Shown here: in pieces, positions 9,139 to 61,201 of the stretch | How positions within the stretch are numbered: position 1 is the stretch's first letter | Layout of the letters: each line of letters opens with the position of its first letter | Virus record (IMG/VR): IMGVR_UViG_3300027908_000002 | Location: 17,087-81,086 of that record | Source of the DNA: a virus | Strand: one strand, 5' to 3' | DNA: 64,000 bases | Notes under the pieces: model-generated | Told to the model about the DNA's origin: nothing | What the model saw: the letters and a program-made list of their open reading frames with translations, nothing else | Databases searched by the model: none | Made by a program: the position numbers and the translations under genes

Positions 9139-9154
9139 CGTCTCTATAGAGACT
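9139..9154. promoter_or_regulatory. Palindromic operator-like site
   Basis: CGTCTCTATAGAGACT, 15/16 to CGTCTCTATAGAGACG. Confidence 0.75.
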
Positions 9155-9347
9155 TTTGGTTCATTGCTTCGATGGCCGAGTGGGCGATAGTGGGGCAGTC
9201 TTCCAGATGCGACCAGGTATCTATATTTCTTAGCACAGCCAACACAAACAAATAATCTTCTGCCAGGGGCCTGATGTTGTCCAGTAATTCTTCGGCCCTG
9301 TACCTGTCTTTGCCTACGATGATTTTTGCCGCTTCTTCGGATGTCAT
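9144..9347 (-). CDS. Hypothetical protein
   Basis: ORF track; ends inside the palindrome. Confidence 0.6.
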   Translation of the reverse strand: MTSEEAAKIIVGKDRYRAEELLDNIRPLAEDYLFVLAVLRNIDTWSHLEDCPTIAHSAIEAMNQKSL

Positions 9348-9355
9348 ATATTTAT

Positions 9356-10153
9356 TTATATTTTCATCGCAGAGAAGTCGGACTGAAGCGTAGTAAAGTC
9401 GAACCCGTTGGGAGCTTTAGCCGTGGCACGGTCGATGGATTCCTGGCTGAACATAGCGAACAACTGCCCGCCCGCTCCACGCGCGGCATACTTGGCAACG
9501 GCGGTTTCGGTCACAGTCCCGGACATTCCCCACGAATCGATGATTACTCCGGTAGCGTCATAGGCCGTGCCAACGAAGCAGTGACCGTTACCGGGGTCCG
9601 GGTCGCCCGCTACGTCCCAGACGAAATCAGAAGCAGACGGAAACGGAGTGATCCAGGCATCCGGAAGTTCTACGCCGAATACCAGGTTCTCGAATAACCA
9701 GAGAGCCTGTTTGACTTCAGTGGGATTCGTTGCATCCACTGACATCCATCCGACGATGTTATTACCGCAGAAGCCGGAAGTCTGGACGTAGTTAAGTGCC
9801 GTCTCTTCGTCGCAGCCCTGGTCAGTTGCCGAATCTCCGGGAACGTATCCGCCGATAGCGGAGTACATCTGAACGATCTGGTCGTCCGTGAACGTCACGG
9901 GCGCTAATCCGGAGTTCCCTGTGAGCACGCCGAAGACGTGGGCGCAACCGGCAATAACGCAATCACCCAGTTTGTCATTCAGGTAAATGTTACTCAGGAC
10001 ACTGGCCGCCGCTGGGCGGTAATCGCAGGAGACTGGAGGCGCTGGAAGAGACGCATCGGCGTAGTCACCGAACTTGATGCGCGGGCGCGGAGCCAAGGGA
10101 CGCTTACGGCCAAGGCGAAACGTCATGCCATTGCTTTCGATAGTCTTGACCAT
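9356..10153 (-). CDS. Papain-like (C1-type) cysteine peptidase
   Basis: NDKLGDCVIAG (Cys), GNGHCFVG (His), IIDSWG (the NSWG position). Confidence 0.75.
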   Translation of the reverse strand: MVKTIESNGMTFRLGRKRPLAPRPRIKFGDYADASLPAPPVSCDYRPAAASVLSNIYLNDKLGDCVIAGCAHVFGVLTGNSGLAPVTFTDDQIVQMYSAIGGYVPGDSATDQGCDEETALNYVQTSGFCGNNIVGWMSVDATNPTEVKQALWLFENLVFGVELPDAWITPFPSASDFVWDVAGDPDPGNGHCFVGTAYDATGVIIDSWGMSGTVTETAVAKYAARGAGGQLFAMFSQESIDRATAKAPNGFDFTTLQSDFSAMKI

Positions 10154-10174
10154 GTTGTCTTTTGTCTCCTGCTG

Positions 10175-10675
10175 CTATTTCTTTGCGAGCCGCGCGTGTT
10201 TTATTGAGTCGTTCACTTCATGGCGAACAATTAACGAAGGCTTGTGTCCGTCATACTGCTTGACCCGCTGAACAGACGCCGCATGCGCTCTCACTGCTAC
10301 TGATACCGGAGGAACTGGCTGCGCTCCTTCTGAGATCAAAAGCACGTTAAGGGCCGCGTTGATACCGGCGACGATGGCTAACTGGGTTCCGTTGCCGGTG
10401 GGAATCGTCTGTTCTGCCGAGACCACGCAGGCAGTGTAGGCGACGTATTTTAGGGCCGCCGCGTCGGCACTGTTGTACTCAGTTCCAATGCAGGACACGG
10501 CTTCGAGTGCCGCATCACCATAGGTAACGCCGGGAGTCCAACCGGAGGCAATTGCCCCGGCCATTTCGCCCGTGATGACTGCTGTTGCGATATCCAGCGC
10601 CGTGGAAGCCGAACAGGCGGTTAATACCAAACACGCGCAGGAGAGCAGCGCCGCAGAGACATAAAATCTTTTCAT
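10175..10675 (-). CDS. Lipoprotein
   Basis: MKRFYVSAALLSCACLVLTA-C lipobox; TGaTACAAT promoter 7 nt upstream. Confidence 0.7.
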   Translation of the reverse strand: MKRFYVSAALLSCACLVLTACSASTALDIATAVITGEMAGAIASGWTPGVTYGDAALEAVSCIGTEYNSADAAALKYVAYTACVVSAEQTIPTGNGTQLAIVAGINAALNVLLISEGAQPVPPVSVAVRAHAASVQRVKQYDGHKPSLIVRHEVNDSIKHARLAKK

Positions 10676-10697
10676 GTCTACTATTGTATCAATAAAC

Positions 10698-11300
10698 TCA
10701 GACCCGGTTTCCAACTCGTACGGGATGGAACACTGCTCCGCCATTCGACTGCGAAGCATACTCGGTGCAAATGCCGTTGACGAACCAAGTTCTGATATTC
10801 TCAGTTCCGCCTGAACCACCTGGAGTCGTGTCGCCATATTGCTGAAATATATTGCCGTTCTGTATTTCGGCATCGAAACTGGATTGCACCTGGAAATAAT
10901 AATTTCCGTTGTCTACCGCTGTGTCTCCTGATCCTGTCCAGTCCCACTCTCCGCCGCCCGCGACACTGGATTCCCATGTGGTTGTCGTAGTGTTTACGGC
11001 ATCCCCGAATAGGCACGGCAGCCGGTATCTCTGAATCGCCAGGTTATTTCCGTTTGCGTCCAGGGTATTATCCGAATCGGTTAGAATCCGTCCATCGGAA
11101 AGTACCGTGTATACGCTCAGGTCGCCGTTCTGTGGGACCCATGCGCCGTCTATAAGAGTCACTTGAAAGACTTCGATGAGAAGATAGCCATTATTCAGGG
11201 TCGTAGTAAAGTTTAGCAAAGTCGTTCCGCCCGGCTGCCCGTAGGCTCCGTTACAGCCAGTAGTGGCACCGTCTCCAGCCATTAGTTCTGCTAGTGTCAT
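10698..11300 (-). CDS. Hypothetical beta-rich protein, possibly virion-associated
   Basis: G/T/N-rich; TAAAAT-N6-ATG leaderless promoter. Confidence 0.65.
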   Translation of the reverse strand: MTLAELMAGDGATTGCNGAYGQPGGTTLLNFTTTLNNGYLLIEVFQVTLIDGAWVPQNGDLSVYTVLSDGRILTDSDNTLDANGNNLAIQRYRLPCLFGDAVNTTTTTWESSVAGGGEWDWTGSGDTAVDNGNYYFQVQSSFDAEIQNGNIFQQYGDTTPGGSGGTENIRTWFVNGICTEYASQSNGGAVFHPVRVGNRV

Positions 11301-11367
11301 GTGATAATTTTAACTTAGTTTACGTTGCTGTATCTGCTTAGTTAGTTTCAAAAATCCAATACTTTTA

Positions 11368-59957: not shown

Positions 59958-59994
59958 AAATTAAAGCCCCCGCCAAGTATCCTATGACGGGGGC
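59957..59994 (-). terminator. Rho-independent terminator of the inverted module
   Basis: GCCCCCG...CGGGGGC followed by TTTAATTTT on the minus strand. Confidence 0.7.
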
Positions 59995-59997
59995 CGA

Positions 59998-60265
59998 TTG
60001 GTTTTCAAGACCAAGTAGTACTTGCCAAATCTTTACACAATCAGTACTCGCAGAGTTCAGCCTAATCCCGATGCCTTACCGCTAGACCACGGGGCCATAG
60101 TTTTTATTGGAGGCCCCGGCTGGATTTGAACCAGCGTTCTCGGTTTGTTGCTCCGCGCCCATCATGCTTCTTATTTCTGGCTTTAGCCTTCGGGTAATAG
60201 ATTAAGCTTATTAGTTAAGCCTGACCATGACCTTTAGCCTGGATTGCGGTTACCCGCCACCCGAA
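59998..60265 (-). ncRNA. Structured RNA with a circularly permuted tRNA-like domain (Y-RNA/YrlA-like topology)
   Basis: T arm plus acceptor-CCA (60143-60108) precede acceptor 5' strand plus D arm (60096-60067); GGCCCCG/CGGGGCC 7/7 pairs; closing helices CCGA/TCGG and CGCGGAG/CTCTGCG. Confidence 0.75.
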
Positions 60266-60266
60266 T

Positions 60267-61022
60267 TTACAGGCCGAAGATATAACTGATGATCTTCTGG
60301 CCGATCTTAGTGTCTATTTTATTGATTTCCTGTTCGTTAGCCCGCGAACGGGCCTTTTTCACTGCGCGGGTGAAGTCTTCCACACGAGATAGCATATCTC
60401 CCTTGGCCGCCACTGTGATTAGCCCGGACCATTCCAGCGTAGTGATTTCTCCGACCGGTACATCTTCAGTGACAAGTTGAACCTGAGCCGGATGCTTATC
60501 GGTAGCCGGGGCCAGAGTGAGCGGCTTATTGACTTTCTTGGTCCGCGTCTTCTTCTCTTCTCTGGCCTTGAACACATCTCCGCCCTTGTCCGGGTCGGCG
60601 CGGAATCCCTTTGCCGGGTCCAGCGTCGGGATCGCCATAACAAAGTCATGAAGTTCTTTCGAGCGCTTCTCCAGTTCCAGAAGAGAAGTGGCCGGAAGTT
60701 GCGACAGGAACACGCCGTCGTAGTCTTCCAGAACCACGTCGGCGCGGGCGACCGTGTTGGCCTCTGCAACCTGATATGATACGTCAAGGCTCTTGACCAG
60801 GAAGTCGGAAATCCATTTAAGCTCCTTGGGAACCGTAGTCTGGATATCCAATTGTCCTTCTATGGTCGTCGGAGTGCCTTCTTCAAACGGTTTATAGGAG
60901 ACGGTCTTTTCCGAGAAGTGGTGCTGCTTCTTTTCGAACGTACCCATCAGTTCCGCACGCGTTTTGTCGGCCTGTGCTTTCAGGTTACCGTCCACGGCCA
61001 AAAGCTCGTGTAACTTGGACAT
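60267..61022 (-). CDS. Uncharacterised conserved protein (KLHELLAV...PATSLLELEK...RTKK...ATDKHPAQV)
   Basis: AAGGA RBS; I recall similar hypothetical proteins in bacteria and phages, family name not verified. Confidence 0.8.
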   Translation of the reverse strand: MSKLHELLAVDGNLKAQADKTRAELMGTFEKKQHHFSEKTVSYKPFEEGTPTTIEGQLDIQTTVPKELKWISDFLVKSLDVSYQVAEANTVARADVVLEDYDGVFLSQLPATSLLELEKRSKELHDFVMAIPTLDPAKGFRADPDKGGDVFKAREEKKTRTKKVNKPLTLAPATDKHPAQVQLVTEDVPVGEITTLEWSGLITVAAKGDMLSRVEDFTRAVKKARSRANEQEINKIDTKIGQKIISYIFGL

Positions 61023-61111
61023 AGCTTGATCCTTCTTTCTAGTTAATCTAAGTGTGATTGATTGGTGGAGCGACTACTTGCCAGTGGCTTTCACCGCCCC
61101 GTGACTATTTA

Positions 61112-61141
61112 AGATTAATATATACGTAGACATTGCGTCAA
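61112..61141 (-). promoter_or_regulatory. Promoter of the inverted protein plus ncRNA module
   Basis: TTGACG-N18-TAATCT. Confidence 0.6.
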
Positions 61142-61185
61142 GTGGCAAGTGTGATTATTTACGTAGATGGCGGGATGTATAGCCA

Positions 61186-61201
61186 CGTCTCTATAGATAC
61201 G
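61186..61201. promoter_or_regulatory. Palindromic site centred on the -35 of the ejection-gene promoter
   Basis: CACGTCTCTATAGATACGTG; TACAAT(61214)-N6-GTG(61226). Confidence 0.75.

Follow-up and report, generated by a model that had tools for sequence, protein, structure and literature searches.

Dispersed palindromes in a 99-kb phage genome as candidate sites for a phage-encoded dimeric DNA-binding protein

Palindrome Copies in the Window and the Genome

The window, i.e., the whole stretch of 64,000 nucleotides (nt) analyzed here, belongs to a 99,075-bp phage genome (G000) and carries a small-gene block, terS-like and TerL genes, portal, head, and tail genes, and a ribonucleotide reductase gene, among which copies of the palindrome CGTCTCTATAGAGACG are dispersed (Table 1). 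At no more than two mismatches, nine matches are found in the window against 0.02 expected from dinucleotide-preserving shuffles (n = 100), and nine matches were reached in 0/100 of these. At no more than three mismatches, the copies at 18128, 30029, and 59028 join, giving 12 in the window against 0.13 expected. The genome as a whole contains 16 sites at no more than two mismatches, a reversed control pattern giving 0, and approximately 16–21 copies in total, i.e., about one site per 6 kb. Symmetrized flanks are consistent with an 18–20-bp form, (C/A)A-CGTCTYTATARAGACG-T(G/T). The existence of the palindrome, which a preliminary description had reported, is confirmed: its coordinates for the nine strong copies (those with up to two mismatches in Table 1) are exact, its three weaker copies are those recovered at three mismatches, and its copy at 23361 (CGTATTTATATATACG) has four mismatches, yet is an 18-bp near-palindrome sharing the ACGT ends and the TATA center. 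The count of four intragenic copies is approximately right, with 16739, 39603, and 59028 deep in ORFs and 48990 in signal-peptide codons.

The motif appears to be phage-specific. The exact word CGTCTCTATAGAGACG has no match in other IMG/VR phage contigs, and 596 Gb of bacterial genomes from 185,579 species representatives gave 39 hits, each single-copy.

Table 1. Palindrome copies and candidate binding proteins (positions refer to the window unless stated).
Feature	Position	Strand	Context
Site, 1 mismatch	9139..9154		between convergent ORFs 8893-9132(+) and 9144-9347(-); right-hand edge of small-gene block
Site, 1 mismatch, CGTATC arm	16739..16754		deep in 989-aa ORF 14243-17212(-)
Weak site, 3 mismatches	18128..18143		3 nt past stop of 18147-20672(-); 22 nt before start of 17731-18105(-)
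RHH-B, 82 aa, candidate binder	22567-22815	+	divergent from tail-fibre genes; ahead of terS-like and TerL genes
Degenerate copy, 4 mismatches, ACGTATTTATATATACGT	23361..23376		15 nt upstream of terS-like ORF 23392-23811
Site, 1 mismatch, GATACG arm	26109..26124		overlaps last TerL codons (23801-26119); 35 nt before ORF 26160
Weak site, 3 mismatches	30029..30044		16 nt upstream of portal ATG (30061)
Site, 1 mismatch	32624..32639		gap separating portal-side genes from head genes
Site, 1 mismatch	38516..38531		intergenic, past head-gene block
Perfect site	39603..39618		within ORF 39069-40028 (minus strand)
Site, 2 mismatches	45351..45366		18 nt past ribonucleotide reductase gene (43389-45332); 36 nt before ORF 45403
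Site, 1 mismatch	48990..49005		41 nt past likely ATG (48949) of 1548-aa gene; signal-peptide codons
Weak site, 3 mismatches	59028..59043		3′ part of 1761-aa gene
Site, 1 mismatch	61186..61201		between inverted accessory module (60267-61022, minus strand) and next rightward tail gene
RHH-A, second RHH protein	genome 3611-3862 (outside window)		predicted promoter overlaps site

Placement and Promoter Context

The sites are mainly intergenic or within approximately 50 nt of start codons, and every functional module is represented. Intergenic enrichment is found in G000 (P = 1e-3) and in the related genomes G001 (P = 2.5e-6) and G002 (P = 6e-5), and the G000 sites are distributed more regularly than chance would give (CV 0.42, P = 0.0004). 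An asymmetric variant in G001 occurs in both orientations inside same-strand gene blocks, and orientation is therefore unrelated to transcription. One site abuts a predicted promoter, TTGACA-17-TAAAAT; another lies 8 nt upstream of TTGACA-18-TATGAT, a third over the -10 of the predicted RHH-A promoter, and a fourth at about +11 to +26 of TTGCGC-17-TAAGAT. These four contexts are typical of operators. No constant distance to -10 or -35 boxes was found, sites being located upstream of, over, and downstream of predicted promoters. The link to late promoters drawn in the preliminary description is not supported, as there is no such fixed spacing and replication and other non-late modules also hold sites. 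Furthermore, several of the intergenic gaps with a site in relatives leave no room for a promoter. Some site-bearing gaps measure just 20–30 nt, such that any effect on transcription there would, speculatively, fall on elongation.

Versions of the Site in Relatives

Relatives of the phage carry lineage-specific palindromes in which the GTCT...AGAC arms are constant and the centers differ, and the central 4–6 nt are palindromic and conserved inside each genome. The pattern GTCT-N6-AGAC occurs 17 times in G000 (0.9 expected), 16 times in G002 (1.2 expected), and nine times in G008 (0.4 expected), and just 2–3 times in G003–G005 (1.5 expected); no version of the palindrome was found in more distant relatives. 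Several sites differ in sequence by lineage and yet are syntenic. They are located ahead of the portal gene (10 nt upstream of it in G002, compared with G000 site 30029), at the 5′ end of the 1548-aa gene (17 nt past the ATG of the G001 orthologue), after the head genes (G001 site 16896, corresponding to G000 38516), upstream of tail genes (G001 sites ahead of the orthologue of the tail gene following G000 45351, and one G001 site ahead of that of the tail gene following G000 61186), and upstream of the orthologue of the gene at genome 91291-92082. In the relative L127, the position of G000 26109, at the TerL end, is occupied by a GTAT-N6-ATAC palindrome. Approximately 23 AGTCT...AGACT sites are found in G006 (75% complete) and six sites in G007, 3/6 of which overlap the upstream stop codon; in the distant relatives G006 and L026 the center is more loop-like and variable. 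Canonical terminators exist separately from the sites, one of them beside the G002 site at 91402.

Candidate Binding Proteins

RHH-B belongs to a conserved family with members in G000, G001, G002, G008, and the metagenome contigs L113 and L114, all of which also hold GTCT...AGAC sites, and a family search gave no member in G003–G005. Its predicted structure comprises an extended segment (residues 24–31) followed by two helices (β-α-α, RHH-like; pLDDT 75). Homodimer prediction gave a score of 0.43 against 0.00 for the best control; the mark passed here was also reached by 20/30 proteins solved as one-chain pairs and by 1/23 solved as single chains. In the predicted homodimer, residues 25–31 pair antiparallel around residue 28 and form a ribbon; at least 88% of contacts agree between runs, with a partner pLDDT of at least 72, although this pass may mirror likeness to known structures because RHH dimers are solved folds. 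A Foldseek search with the model gave no significant match, the best being a TCP domain and ParD1, both at E > 1. RHH-B is the best candidate for the putative binder of the palindrome, and the RHH-like candidate at 22567 proposed earlier gains support from its conserved family, RHH-like model, predicted homodimer, and co-occurrence with GTCT-N6-AGAC.

As the genomes that carry RHH-B and RHH-A form one clade, phylogeny confounds the co-occurrence of these two proteins with the motif. Palindromes are present in G006, in which, at 75% completeness, neither RHH-A nor RHH-B is detectable, and in G007 the region upstream of TerL is present and RHH-B was not found there. In L127, an RHH-B-like gene is present and the MCP shares 82% identity with its G000 counterpart, but 10 kb of sequence shows a single palindrome. 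The short region upstream of RHH-B is siteless in every genome examined. RHH-A is the runner-up candidate; it scores 18.7 bits on Pfam RHH_1 (cut-off 20.5), and its promoter in G002 contains a different inverted repeat. For the HTH-like (8426) and Zn-ribbon (3991) proteins, also proposed previously, no family evidence points to DNA binding.

Interpretation and Alternatives

The palindromes most probably serve as binding sites of a DNA-binding protein that is encoded by the phage and forms a symmetric dimer. Half-sites occur almost exclusively as inverted pairs, isolated half-sites (n = 5) being at about chance level; position 6 varies between C and T with a mirror change at position 11, and the site at genome 16800 has the position-6-type change in both halves. 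The centers of the GTCT and AGAC arms are one helical turn apart, and the putative dimer would read these conserved arms plus the lineage-specific center. The sites lie at gene and operon boundaries genome-wide, and the binder would control transcription across the genome by operator-type or roadblock (insulator)-type action, rather than as part of the core promoter. The motif, with its over-representation, symmetry, placement, and co-variation among relatives, is demonstrated; protein binding, the identity of the binder, and the effect of binding on transcription are inferred. The full reading, in which the palindromes are multi-copy double-stranded DNA sites for one phage-encoded two-fold symmetric protein acting as a genome-wide regulator, with RHH-B as the best candidate, is tentatively preferred, at a little short of an even chance.

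The strongest alternative, although an unlikely one, is an RNA or extruded-DNA hairpin, i.e., an intercistronic stem-loop for mRNA 3′-end stability, endoribonuclease processing, or RNA polymerase pausing. A perfect palindrome would function in either orientation, the sites lie between cistrons and often a few nt from stop or start codons, as in the stop-codon overlaps of G007, and good copies have folding energies of -7.5 to -8.8 kcal/mol (z ~ -4), in addition to the loop-like centers of G006 and L026. However, a loop needs no conserved palindromic center such as each genome has, and the C/T variants in the sense strand give U·G three times and C·A three times, i.e., no G·U bias. The 6–7-bp stems range from -2.8 to -8.8 kcal/mol, and two well-placed intergenic copies with the GATACG arm fold at just -2.8 kcal/mol, no better than shuffled sequences. 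No T-run (U-tract) of an intrinsic terminator was found 3′ of the sites, the canonical terminators are separate, and an Rfam search with the sites gave no family match. A symmetric dimer on double-stranded DNA is thus favored because of the inverted half-site pairs, the lack of G·U bias, the poor hairpins, and the unfixed promoter distance, which likewise disfavor an RNA hairpin, a terminator, and a core promoter element. The dimeric binder envisaged in the preliminary description is supported as the best reading by the inverted half-sites, symmetric variants, absent wobble bias, and co-varying relatives. Less probable than hairpins is a reading of the sites as hot spots of recombination or module exchange, or as a REP-like short palindromic repeat that propagates itself, kept uniform through gene conversion instead of a regulator. 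The island of RNA-ligase, tRNA, and reductase genes is bracketed by 38516/39603 and 45351, the inverted module 60267-61022 is bracketed by 59028 and 61186, indels in Cluster O phages arose via repeat–repeat recombination (PMC4351075), and each genome has its own version at syntenic sites, as concerted evolution predicts. By contrast, the copies share no flanking sequence, a search for a Y1/RAYT transposase (Y1_Tnp) gave no match in G000, G001, G002, G006, and G008, and the strict inverted pairing with arms constant across diverged lineages argues for selection by a reader.

The recruitment of a host protein, either nucleoid-associated or a global regulator, has a lower probability again. It would account for the palindromes of G006 and G007, where no RHH candidate was detected, and for a center that varies by lineage, as differing host species might cause; however, a host regulon would be expected to hold copies, and the 16-mer occurs at most once in any of the bacterial representatives covered, which speaks provisionally against this reading. 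Still less support is assigned to parS- or KorB-operator-like loading sites for a ParB-like protein, for distant promoter silencing or genome organization and partition. The motif is a 16-bp palindrome with promoter-proximal, distal, and intragenic copies, like the KorB operators on RK2 (PMC11790492), and one site directly adjoins the -35 box in the promoter of a ParB-like gene (genome 11318-12376) with PHROG ParB-like hits down to E = 4e-7. However, the protein scores on Pfam ParB_N in G000 only and at 15.3 bits, under the 26.3 cut-off, and a family HMM gave clear homologues in the motif-free G003–G005 and none in the motif-bearing G001 and G002. ParA (AAA_31) had no match in G000, G001, G002, and G006, nor did an integrase (Phage_integrase) in G000–G003 and G006, and hence nothing points to a plasmid-prophage life style. 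The partition reading advanced earlier is therefore not supported. The two remaining alternatives are both very improbable, and the lowest of all. Targets of the phage N6_N4 DNA methyltransferase (genome 92126-93193), or another restriction-modification tie, would fit the homologues of this enzyme in the palindrome-bearing G000, G001, G002, and G006 and their absence from G003–G005, a site overlapping the 3′ end of the gene, and the word CGTCTC in each G000 arm; however, the enzymes of G000 and G002 share 77% identity despite different motif centers, GTCTC, CGTCTC, and GTCT are neither avoided nor enriched, and the gene-boundary placement is left unexplained. A role in late-gene transcription, as part of the core promoter or as an activator site at a fixed position, would fit the many sites 16–46 nt upstream of start codons and the -10-like boxes 12–15 nt downstream in 4/36 oriented flanks (~1 expected), but is opposed by the variable box offsets, short gaps, and non-late sites described above.

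Comparison With Known Systems

Dispersed phage-specific palindromes are already known from Cluster O mycobacteriophages, whose 17-bp dyad repeat, TGTTCGGNNNCCGAACA, is of unexplained function with a suspected dimeric binder (PMC4351075). This repeat is the closest described analogue: in both cases, tens of dyad copies are spread over a 70–100-kb phage genome, mostly in short intergenic regions or gene 5′ ends with some deep in genes, irrespective of orientation, with few near predicted promoters, and the Cluster O repeat is not found in host genomes (PMC4351075). Likewise, the present palindrome forms 16 dispersed dyad sites at no more than two mismatches, with intergenic and 5′-end bias and free orientation. 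The two differ in sequence, host group, and lineage, and here the copies are fewer (16–21) with no variable spacer. Moreover, diverged relatives here reveal the evolution of the motif, with constant arms and a changing center, a view not available from the near-identical Cluster O genomes.

Cluster A stoperators are asymmetric 13–14-bp sites of temperate phages, oriented with transcription, and their binder is a monomeric HTH immunity repressor. As here, many copies of a short site are spread genome-wide, mostly in short intergenic regions; the stoperator sequence evolves together with the phage's own binder, and elongation is affected away from promoters (PMC6550527, PMC9283540). By contrast, the site described here is palindromic and orientation-free, and an integrase and immunity system were not found; it is accordingly not classed as a stoperator. 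It is possible, but doubtful, that in this ~100-kb lytic lineage a small RHH dimer and 15–25 dispersed palindromes would form a transcription insulator or roadblock network, a symmetric counterpart of stoperators, in which the arms are kept while the central hexamer and ribbon residues co-evolve into a private code per lineage. KorB is a ParB-family global repressor with operators on plasmid RK2, short palindromes in about a dozen dispersed copies that are promoter-near, promoter-far, or intragenic (PMC11790492). Shared features are this dispersed placement and the copy that immediately precedes the -35 box of the ParB-like gene. However, profile support for that gene is weak, its distribution among relatives does not follow that of the motif, and no ParA was found.

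This lineage of uncultured soil phages provides relatives in a graded series, with constant arms, a changing center, and some siteless relatives, plus a small-protein candidate, which together make the question of function testable and could reveal how large lytic phages partition transcription across a mosaic genome. The RHH repressors Arc, Mnt, CopG, and MetJ have palindromic operators of ~17–21 bp with sub-sites one helical turn apart, and one or few operators each. The present phage resembles these systems in encoding a small protein of predicted RHH type and differs in its 16–20 dispersed sites. The MetJ box, AGACGTCT, and the arms described here have the words ACGTCT and AGACGT in common, which may be chance.

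The Palindrome and Its Placement in the Phage Genome

The 16-mer CGTCTCTATAGAGACG is matched nine times in the window at ≤2 mismatches, against 0.02 matches expected from dinucleotide-preserving shuffles, and all nine coincide with copies listed in the preliminary description; at three mismatches the total is 12 (0.13 expected). The window covers positions 17087–81086 of the source genome (G000, 99,075 bp, an IMG/VR virus record from soil metagenomes). The whole of that genome contains 16 sites at ≤2 mismatches and none for a reversed control pattern, together with five further sites with three mismatches and one degenerate copy. 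Symmetrised over all 16 sites, the base counts yield (C/A)A-CGTCTYTATARAGACG-T(G/T); the one common substitution is C/T at position 6, mirrored at position 11. The exact 16-mer was not found in any other IMG/VR contig, and a search of species-representative genomes of bacteria and archaea (596 Gb) met it 39 times, each time as one copy per contig; judged from these sequences, the motif appears to be a property of the phage and not of the host. Among sequencing runs, the stretch is present in only two soil DNA metagenomes, with no RNA holder listed. Nucleotide comparison of G000 with cultured phages gave no match, and its major capsid protein is closest among them to those of Myxococcus phages Mx9 and Mx8, at only 24–27% identity.

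According to our own ORF-based gene calls, nine of the 16 sites are intergenic, three lie ≤160 nt from a 5′ end, and one is at a 3′ end; the usual position is 16–46 nt 5′ of a start codon. Intergenic placement is significant in G000 (P = 1e-3) and, with the equivalent sites of each relative, in G001 (P = 2.5e-6) and G002 (P = 6e-5). Sites occur in all modules (replication, tail fibers, packaging and head, tail, and the lysis/methylase side), the exception being a site-free block of small genes of ~9 kb that is flanked on both sides by a site. In G000 the sites are spaced more regularly than chance predicts (CV 0.42, P = 0.0004); the same tendency is borderline in G002 and lacks significance in G001.

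Coordinates of features in the source genome (G000) and in the related contig G002
Feature	Coordinates	Remarks
Contig-end repeats	genome 1–70 and 98880–99075	outside the window; L047, L048
RHH-A gene	genome 3611–3862
ParB-like gene	genome 11318–12376
Site-free small-gene block	genome 17–26 kb
Gene with a conserved 5′ site	genome 91291–92082
N6_N4 methyltransferase gene	genome 92126–93193	L048 11040–12107
Promoters close to ATG	genome 92040–92100; window 18105–18130	predicted
RHH-B gene	window 22567–22815 (+)	82 aa
Degenerate palindrome copy	window 23361
Portal-gene segment	window 31127–31212
RNA ligase/reductase island	window 38516–45366	flanked by sites 38516/39603 and 45351
Inverted accessory ORF	window 47504–47896
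Palindrome in signal peptide	window 48949–49020	1548-aa protein
TnpB-like gene of G002	G002 86065–87355	L035
RHH-A promoter of G002	G002 91300–91360	L035

Motif Evolution Among Related Phages

Capsid-based searches recovered 22 viral and 26 metagenome loci, and whole contigs were taken for nine. The motif versions of the relatives show constant GTCT/AGAC arms and a lineage-specific central hexamer.

Palindrome versions in related contigs (expected counts for arm words, as for half-site words, are analytic)
Relative	Capsid identity to G000	Motif	Copies
G001	71%	ACRTCTKGATCMAGAYGT	about 19
G002	60%	(T)GTCTGNATNCAGAC(A)	16
G008	61%	GTCTRCRTCAAGAC	GTCT-N6-AGAC, 9 in 35-kb contig
L116	72%	ACGTCTAGGSCTAGACGT	2
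L114	(found through RHH-B)	G001-type motif	6 in 12 kb
G006	53%	AGTCTGAAATTAAGACT-like	about 23
G007	52%	AGTCCGARYTCGGACT	6, all intergenic
G003–G005	53–54%	no palindrome family	GTCT-N6-AGAC, 2–3 vs. 1.5 expected

Sites of different sequence occupy syntenic places: 5′ of the portal gene (G000, G002), no more than 60 nt into the gene for the 1548-aa signal-peptide protein (+41 in G000, +17 in G001, with unrelated encoded residues), after the head genes, 5′ of two tail genes, and 5′ of the orthologue of one further gene with a conserved 5′ site. This is the pattern that would be expected if the site set evolves in step with one reader, and such co-evolution with the reader protein has been shown for stoperators (PMC6550527). 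Intragenic sites in the TPR-glycosyltransferase genes of G000 and G002 were not accepted as positional conservation, the codons not being homologous. The G005 word TACTGAAGAA, found as TACTGAAGAA-N4-CAGT in eight exact copies (L092–L096), is mostly intragenic and was left out of the family. A different repeat is present in L026/G009, that of L026 forming CACTTT-N5-AAAGTG hairpins with variable loops (five copies).

In the 1548-aa protein, the palindrome falls within the signal-peptide codons, where it encodes S-V-F-I-E-T, and the G001 orthologue carries its own palindrome version in the same region, encoding L-R-L-D-Q-D-V; this suggests selection for the DNA motif at a cost to the encoded peptide. 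The island contains an RNA ligase, a tRNA, and a class II ribonucleotide reductase, as well as an ORF presumed to be Pnk-like; these genes are absent between the equivalent sites of G001, and the ligase and reductase are located elsewhere in G003 and G006.

Probable Mode of Recognition and Relation to Promoters

Half-sites occur almost solely as inverted pairs, and isolated CGTCTYTA words (n = 5) are near chance level. The centers of the GTCT and AGAC arms are 10 bp apart, i.e., one helical turn. An RNA hairpin formed by the sites is one of several readings sharing the weight left by the preferred one, and the best-folding copies reach −7.5 to −8.8 kcal/mol; however, the central four bases are themselves palindromic and kept within each genome, neither of which a loop would require. 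Furthermore, in the sense transcript the C/T variants would produce U·G and C·A equally often (three times each), without wobble bias, and the copy at 26109 folds at −2.8 kcal/mol, no better than shuffles; it shares the GATACG arm and an identical 16-mer with the copy at 61186, and both are well-placed intergenic sites. Neither a T-run after the sites nor a matching Rfam family was found. Owing to the inverted pairing, palindromic center, lack of wobble bias, poor folding at 26109, and absence of a T-run or Rfam match, we read the sites as double-stranded DNA recognized by a putative two-fold symmetric protein. The dimer-binding interpretation proposed from the sequence at the outset is the best supported one.

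The relation of the sites to predicted sigma-70-type promoters varies: a site abuts the −35 of TTGACA-17-TAAAAT at the ParB-like gene, lies 8 nt 5′ of TTGACA-18-TATGAT, covers the −10 of TTGACT-18-TATAAA at the RHH-A gene, or spans about +11 to +26 of TTGCGC-17-TAAGAT. No common offset between sites and a −10 box was found, of the 44 predicted promoters only ~5 have a site nearby, and in the relatives several sites occupy intergenic gaps of 20–30 nt, too small for a promoter. The varied relations, missing offset, and small gaps speak against a core promoter element. The proposed link to late promoters is likewise unsupported, given the missing offset, the small gaps, and the presence of sites in every module.

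Candidate Binding Proteins

RHH-B, proposed earlier as a ribbon-helix-helix (RHH)-like candidate, belongs to a conserved family with the signature G-R-K-x-x-P ... R-x-R-I-x-x-R-x-x-P-A-T ... L-G-R-A-I-D. Its gene is found in G000, G001, G002, G008, L113, L114, L111, and L127, always divergent from tail-fiber genes, and was not found in G003–G005. A related-locus search with the RHH-B alignment returned only known contigs and one near-duplicate; P0002, P0004, and P0008 are additional homologues. In the AlphaFold model (pLDDT 75), residues 24–31 are extended and precede two helices, and Foldseek gave weak matches only, to a TCP domain and the ParD1 antitoxin (both E > 1). In the homodimer test, RHH-B scored 0.43 (best control 0.00), a mark also attained by 20 of 30 proteins whose solved structures are pairs of one chain and by 1 of 23 solved as single chains, with contact agreement of at least 88% and partner pLDDT of at least 72 among runs. 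The predicted dimer shows the RHH architecture, with an antiparallel pairing of residues 25–31 centered on residue 28; its resemblance to RHH dimers of known structure may account for the pass. RHH-B gains weight as a candidate, although its co-occurrence with the motif is confounded by phylogeny; no RHH protein was detected in G006 and G007 despite their palindromes, and L127 has an RHH-B-like gene yet one palindrome in 10 kb. The contig of P0004 carries a complete IS200/IS605 element (Y1_Tnp and OrfB).

RHH-A is a second candidate RHH protein (Pfam RHH_1, 18.7 bits) whose gene promoter overlaps a site. Homologues are present in G001, where the gene is syntenic, and in G002, but not in G003–G005; a related-locus search with the RHH-A alignment gave no match. 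The G002 RHH-A promoter (TTTACA-17-TACTAT) bears, between −35 and −10, the different inverted repeat GTAACGC-N5-GCGTTAC, likely a private operator distinct from the dispersed palindrome. In G002, a 381-aa TnpB-like gene (IS605 OrfB type) adjoins a second RHH-A paralogue. Pfam and PHROG scans of ~40 small proteins revealed no DNA-binding family besides RHH-A, leaving the formerly suggested HTH-like (8426) and Zn-ribbon (3991) proteins without family support.

Our leading interpretation, held at a little below an even chance, is that a phage-encoded symmetric DNA-binding protein, with RHH-B as leading candidate, occupies dispersed operator or roadblock sites. The remaining probability is spread over the RNA hairpin, recombination hot spots, a host factor, a ParB-like clamp, methylation, and a promoter element. 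The ParB-like gene has a site at its promoter, but its product is below the Pfam cut-off and is an unlikely reader, having no homologue in motif-bearing G001 and G002 and clear ones in palindrome-free G003–G005. Neither ParA nor an integrase was found, and the suggested partition role is unsupported, given the missing ParA and this failed co-occurrence. A tie of the sites to methylation is favored by the N6_N4 methyltransferase, whose homologues occur only in palindrome-bearing G001, G002, and G006, whereas the 77% identity of the G000 and G002 enzymes, despite different motif centers, and the normal frequency of short arm words speak against a direct link. As most proteins shared by G000 and G002 are 25–60% identical, the methyltransferase sequences suggest recent horizontal exchange.

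Comparison With Known Systems

Among systems described so far, the 17-bp dyad repeat found in Cluster O mycobacteriophages comes closest; it has >30 copies with few promoters nearby, is not found in the host, and is unexplained in function (PMC4351075); the placement statistics are the same, without an orientation rule. Stoperators are alike in genome-wide spread and co-evolution with a phage protein, but they lack symmetry, are oriented, and have as their reader a monomeric immunity repressor of temperate phages (PMC9283540). KorB operators are alike in copy number and mix of positions (PMC11790492), whereas the ParB-like protein here fails the co-occurrence test. A REP/RAYT-type origin is unsupported because no Y1 transposase was found. 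The palindrome system is of a known, still unexplained kind, dispersed phage dyad repeats, to which it adds a set of informative relatives and a candidate protein open to testing.

Additional Observations

Some predicted promoters end 6–8 nt before ATG (e.g., TATGAT, 8 nt, ATG), which suggests leaderless mRNAs. In a phmmer search, the inverted accessory ORF matched the portal ORF of every relative (E 1e-5 to 6e-11), which agrees with its carrying a copy of a portal-gene segment. CCCGKMCCCG-type 9-nt repeats make up the two ends of the contig and encode collagen-like Gly-X-Y on the opposite strand; G004 ends similarly. The probable explanation is a circularly permuted or terminally redundant genome whose assembly was interrupted within a collagen-repeat gene.
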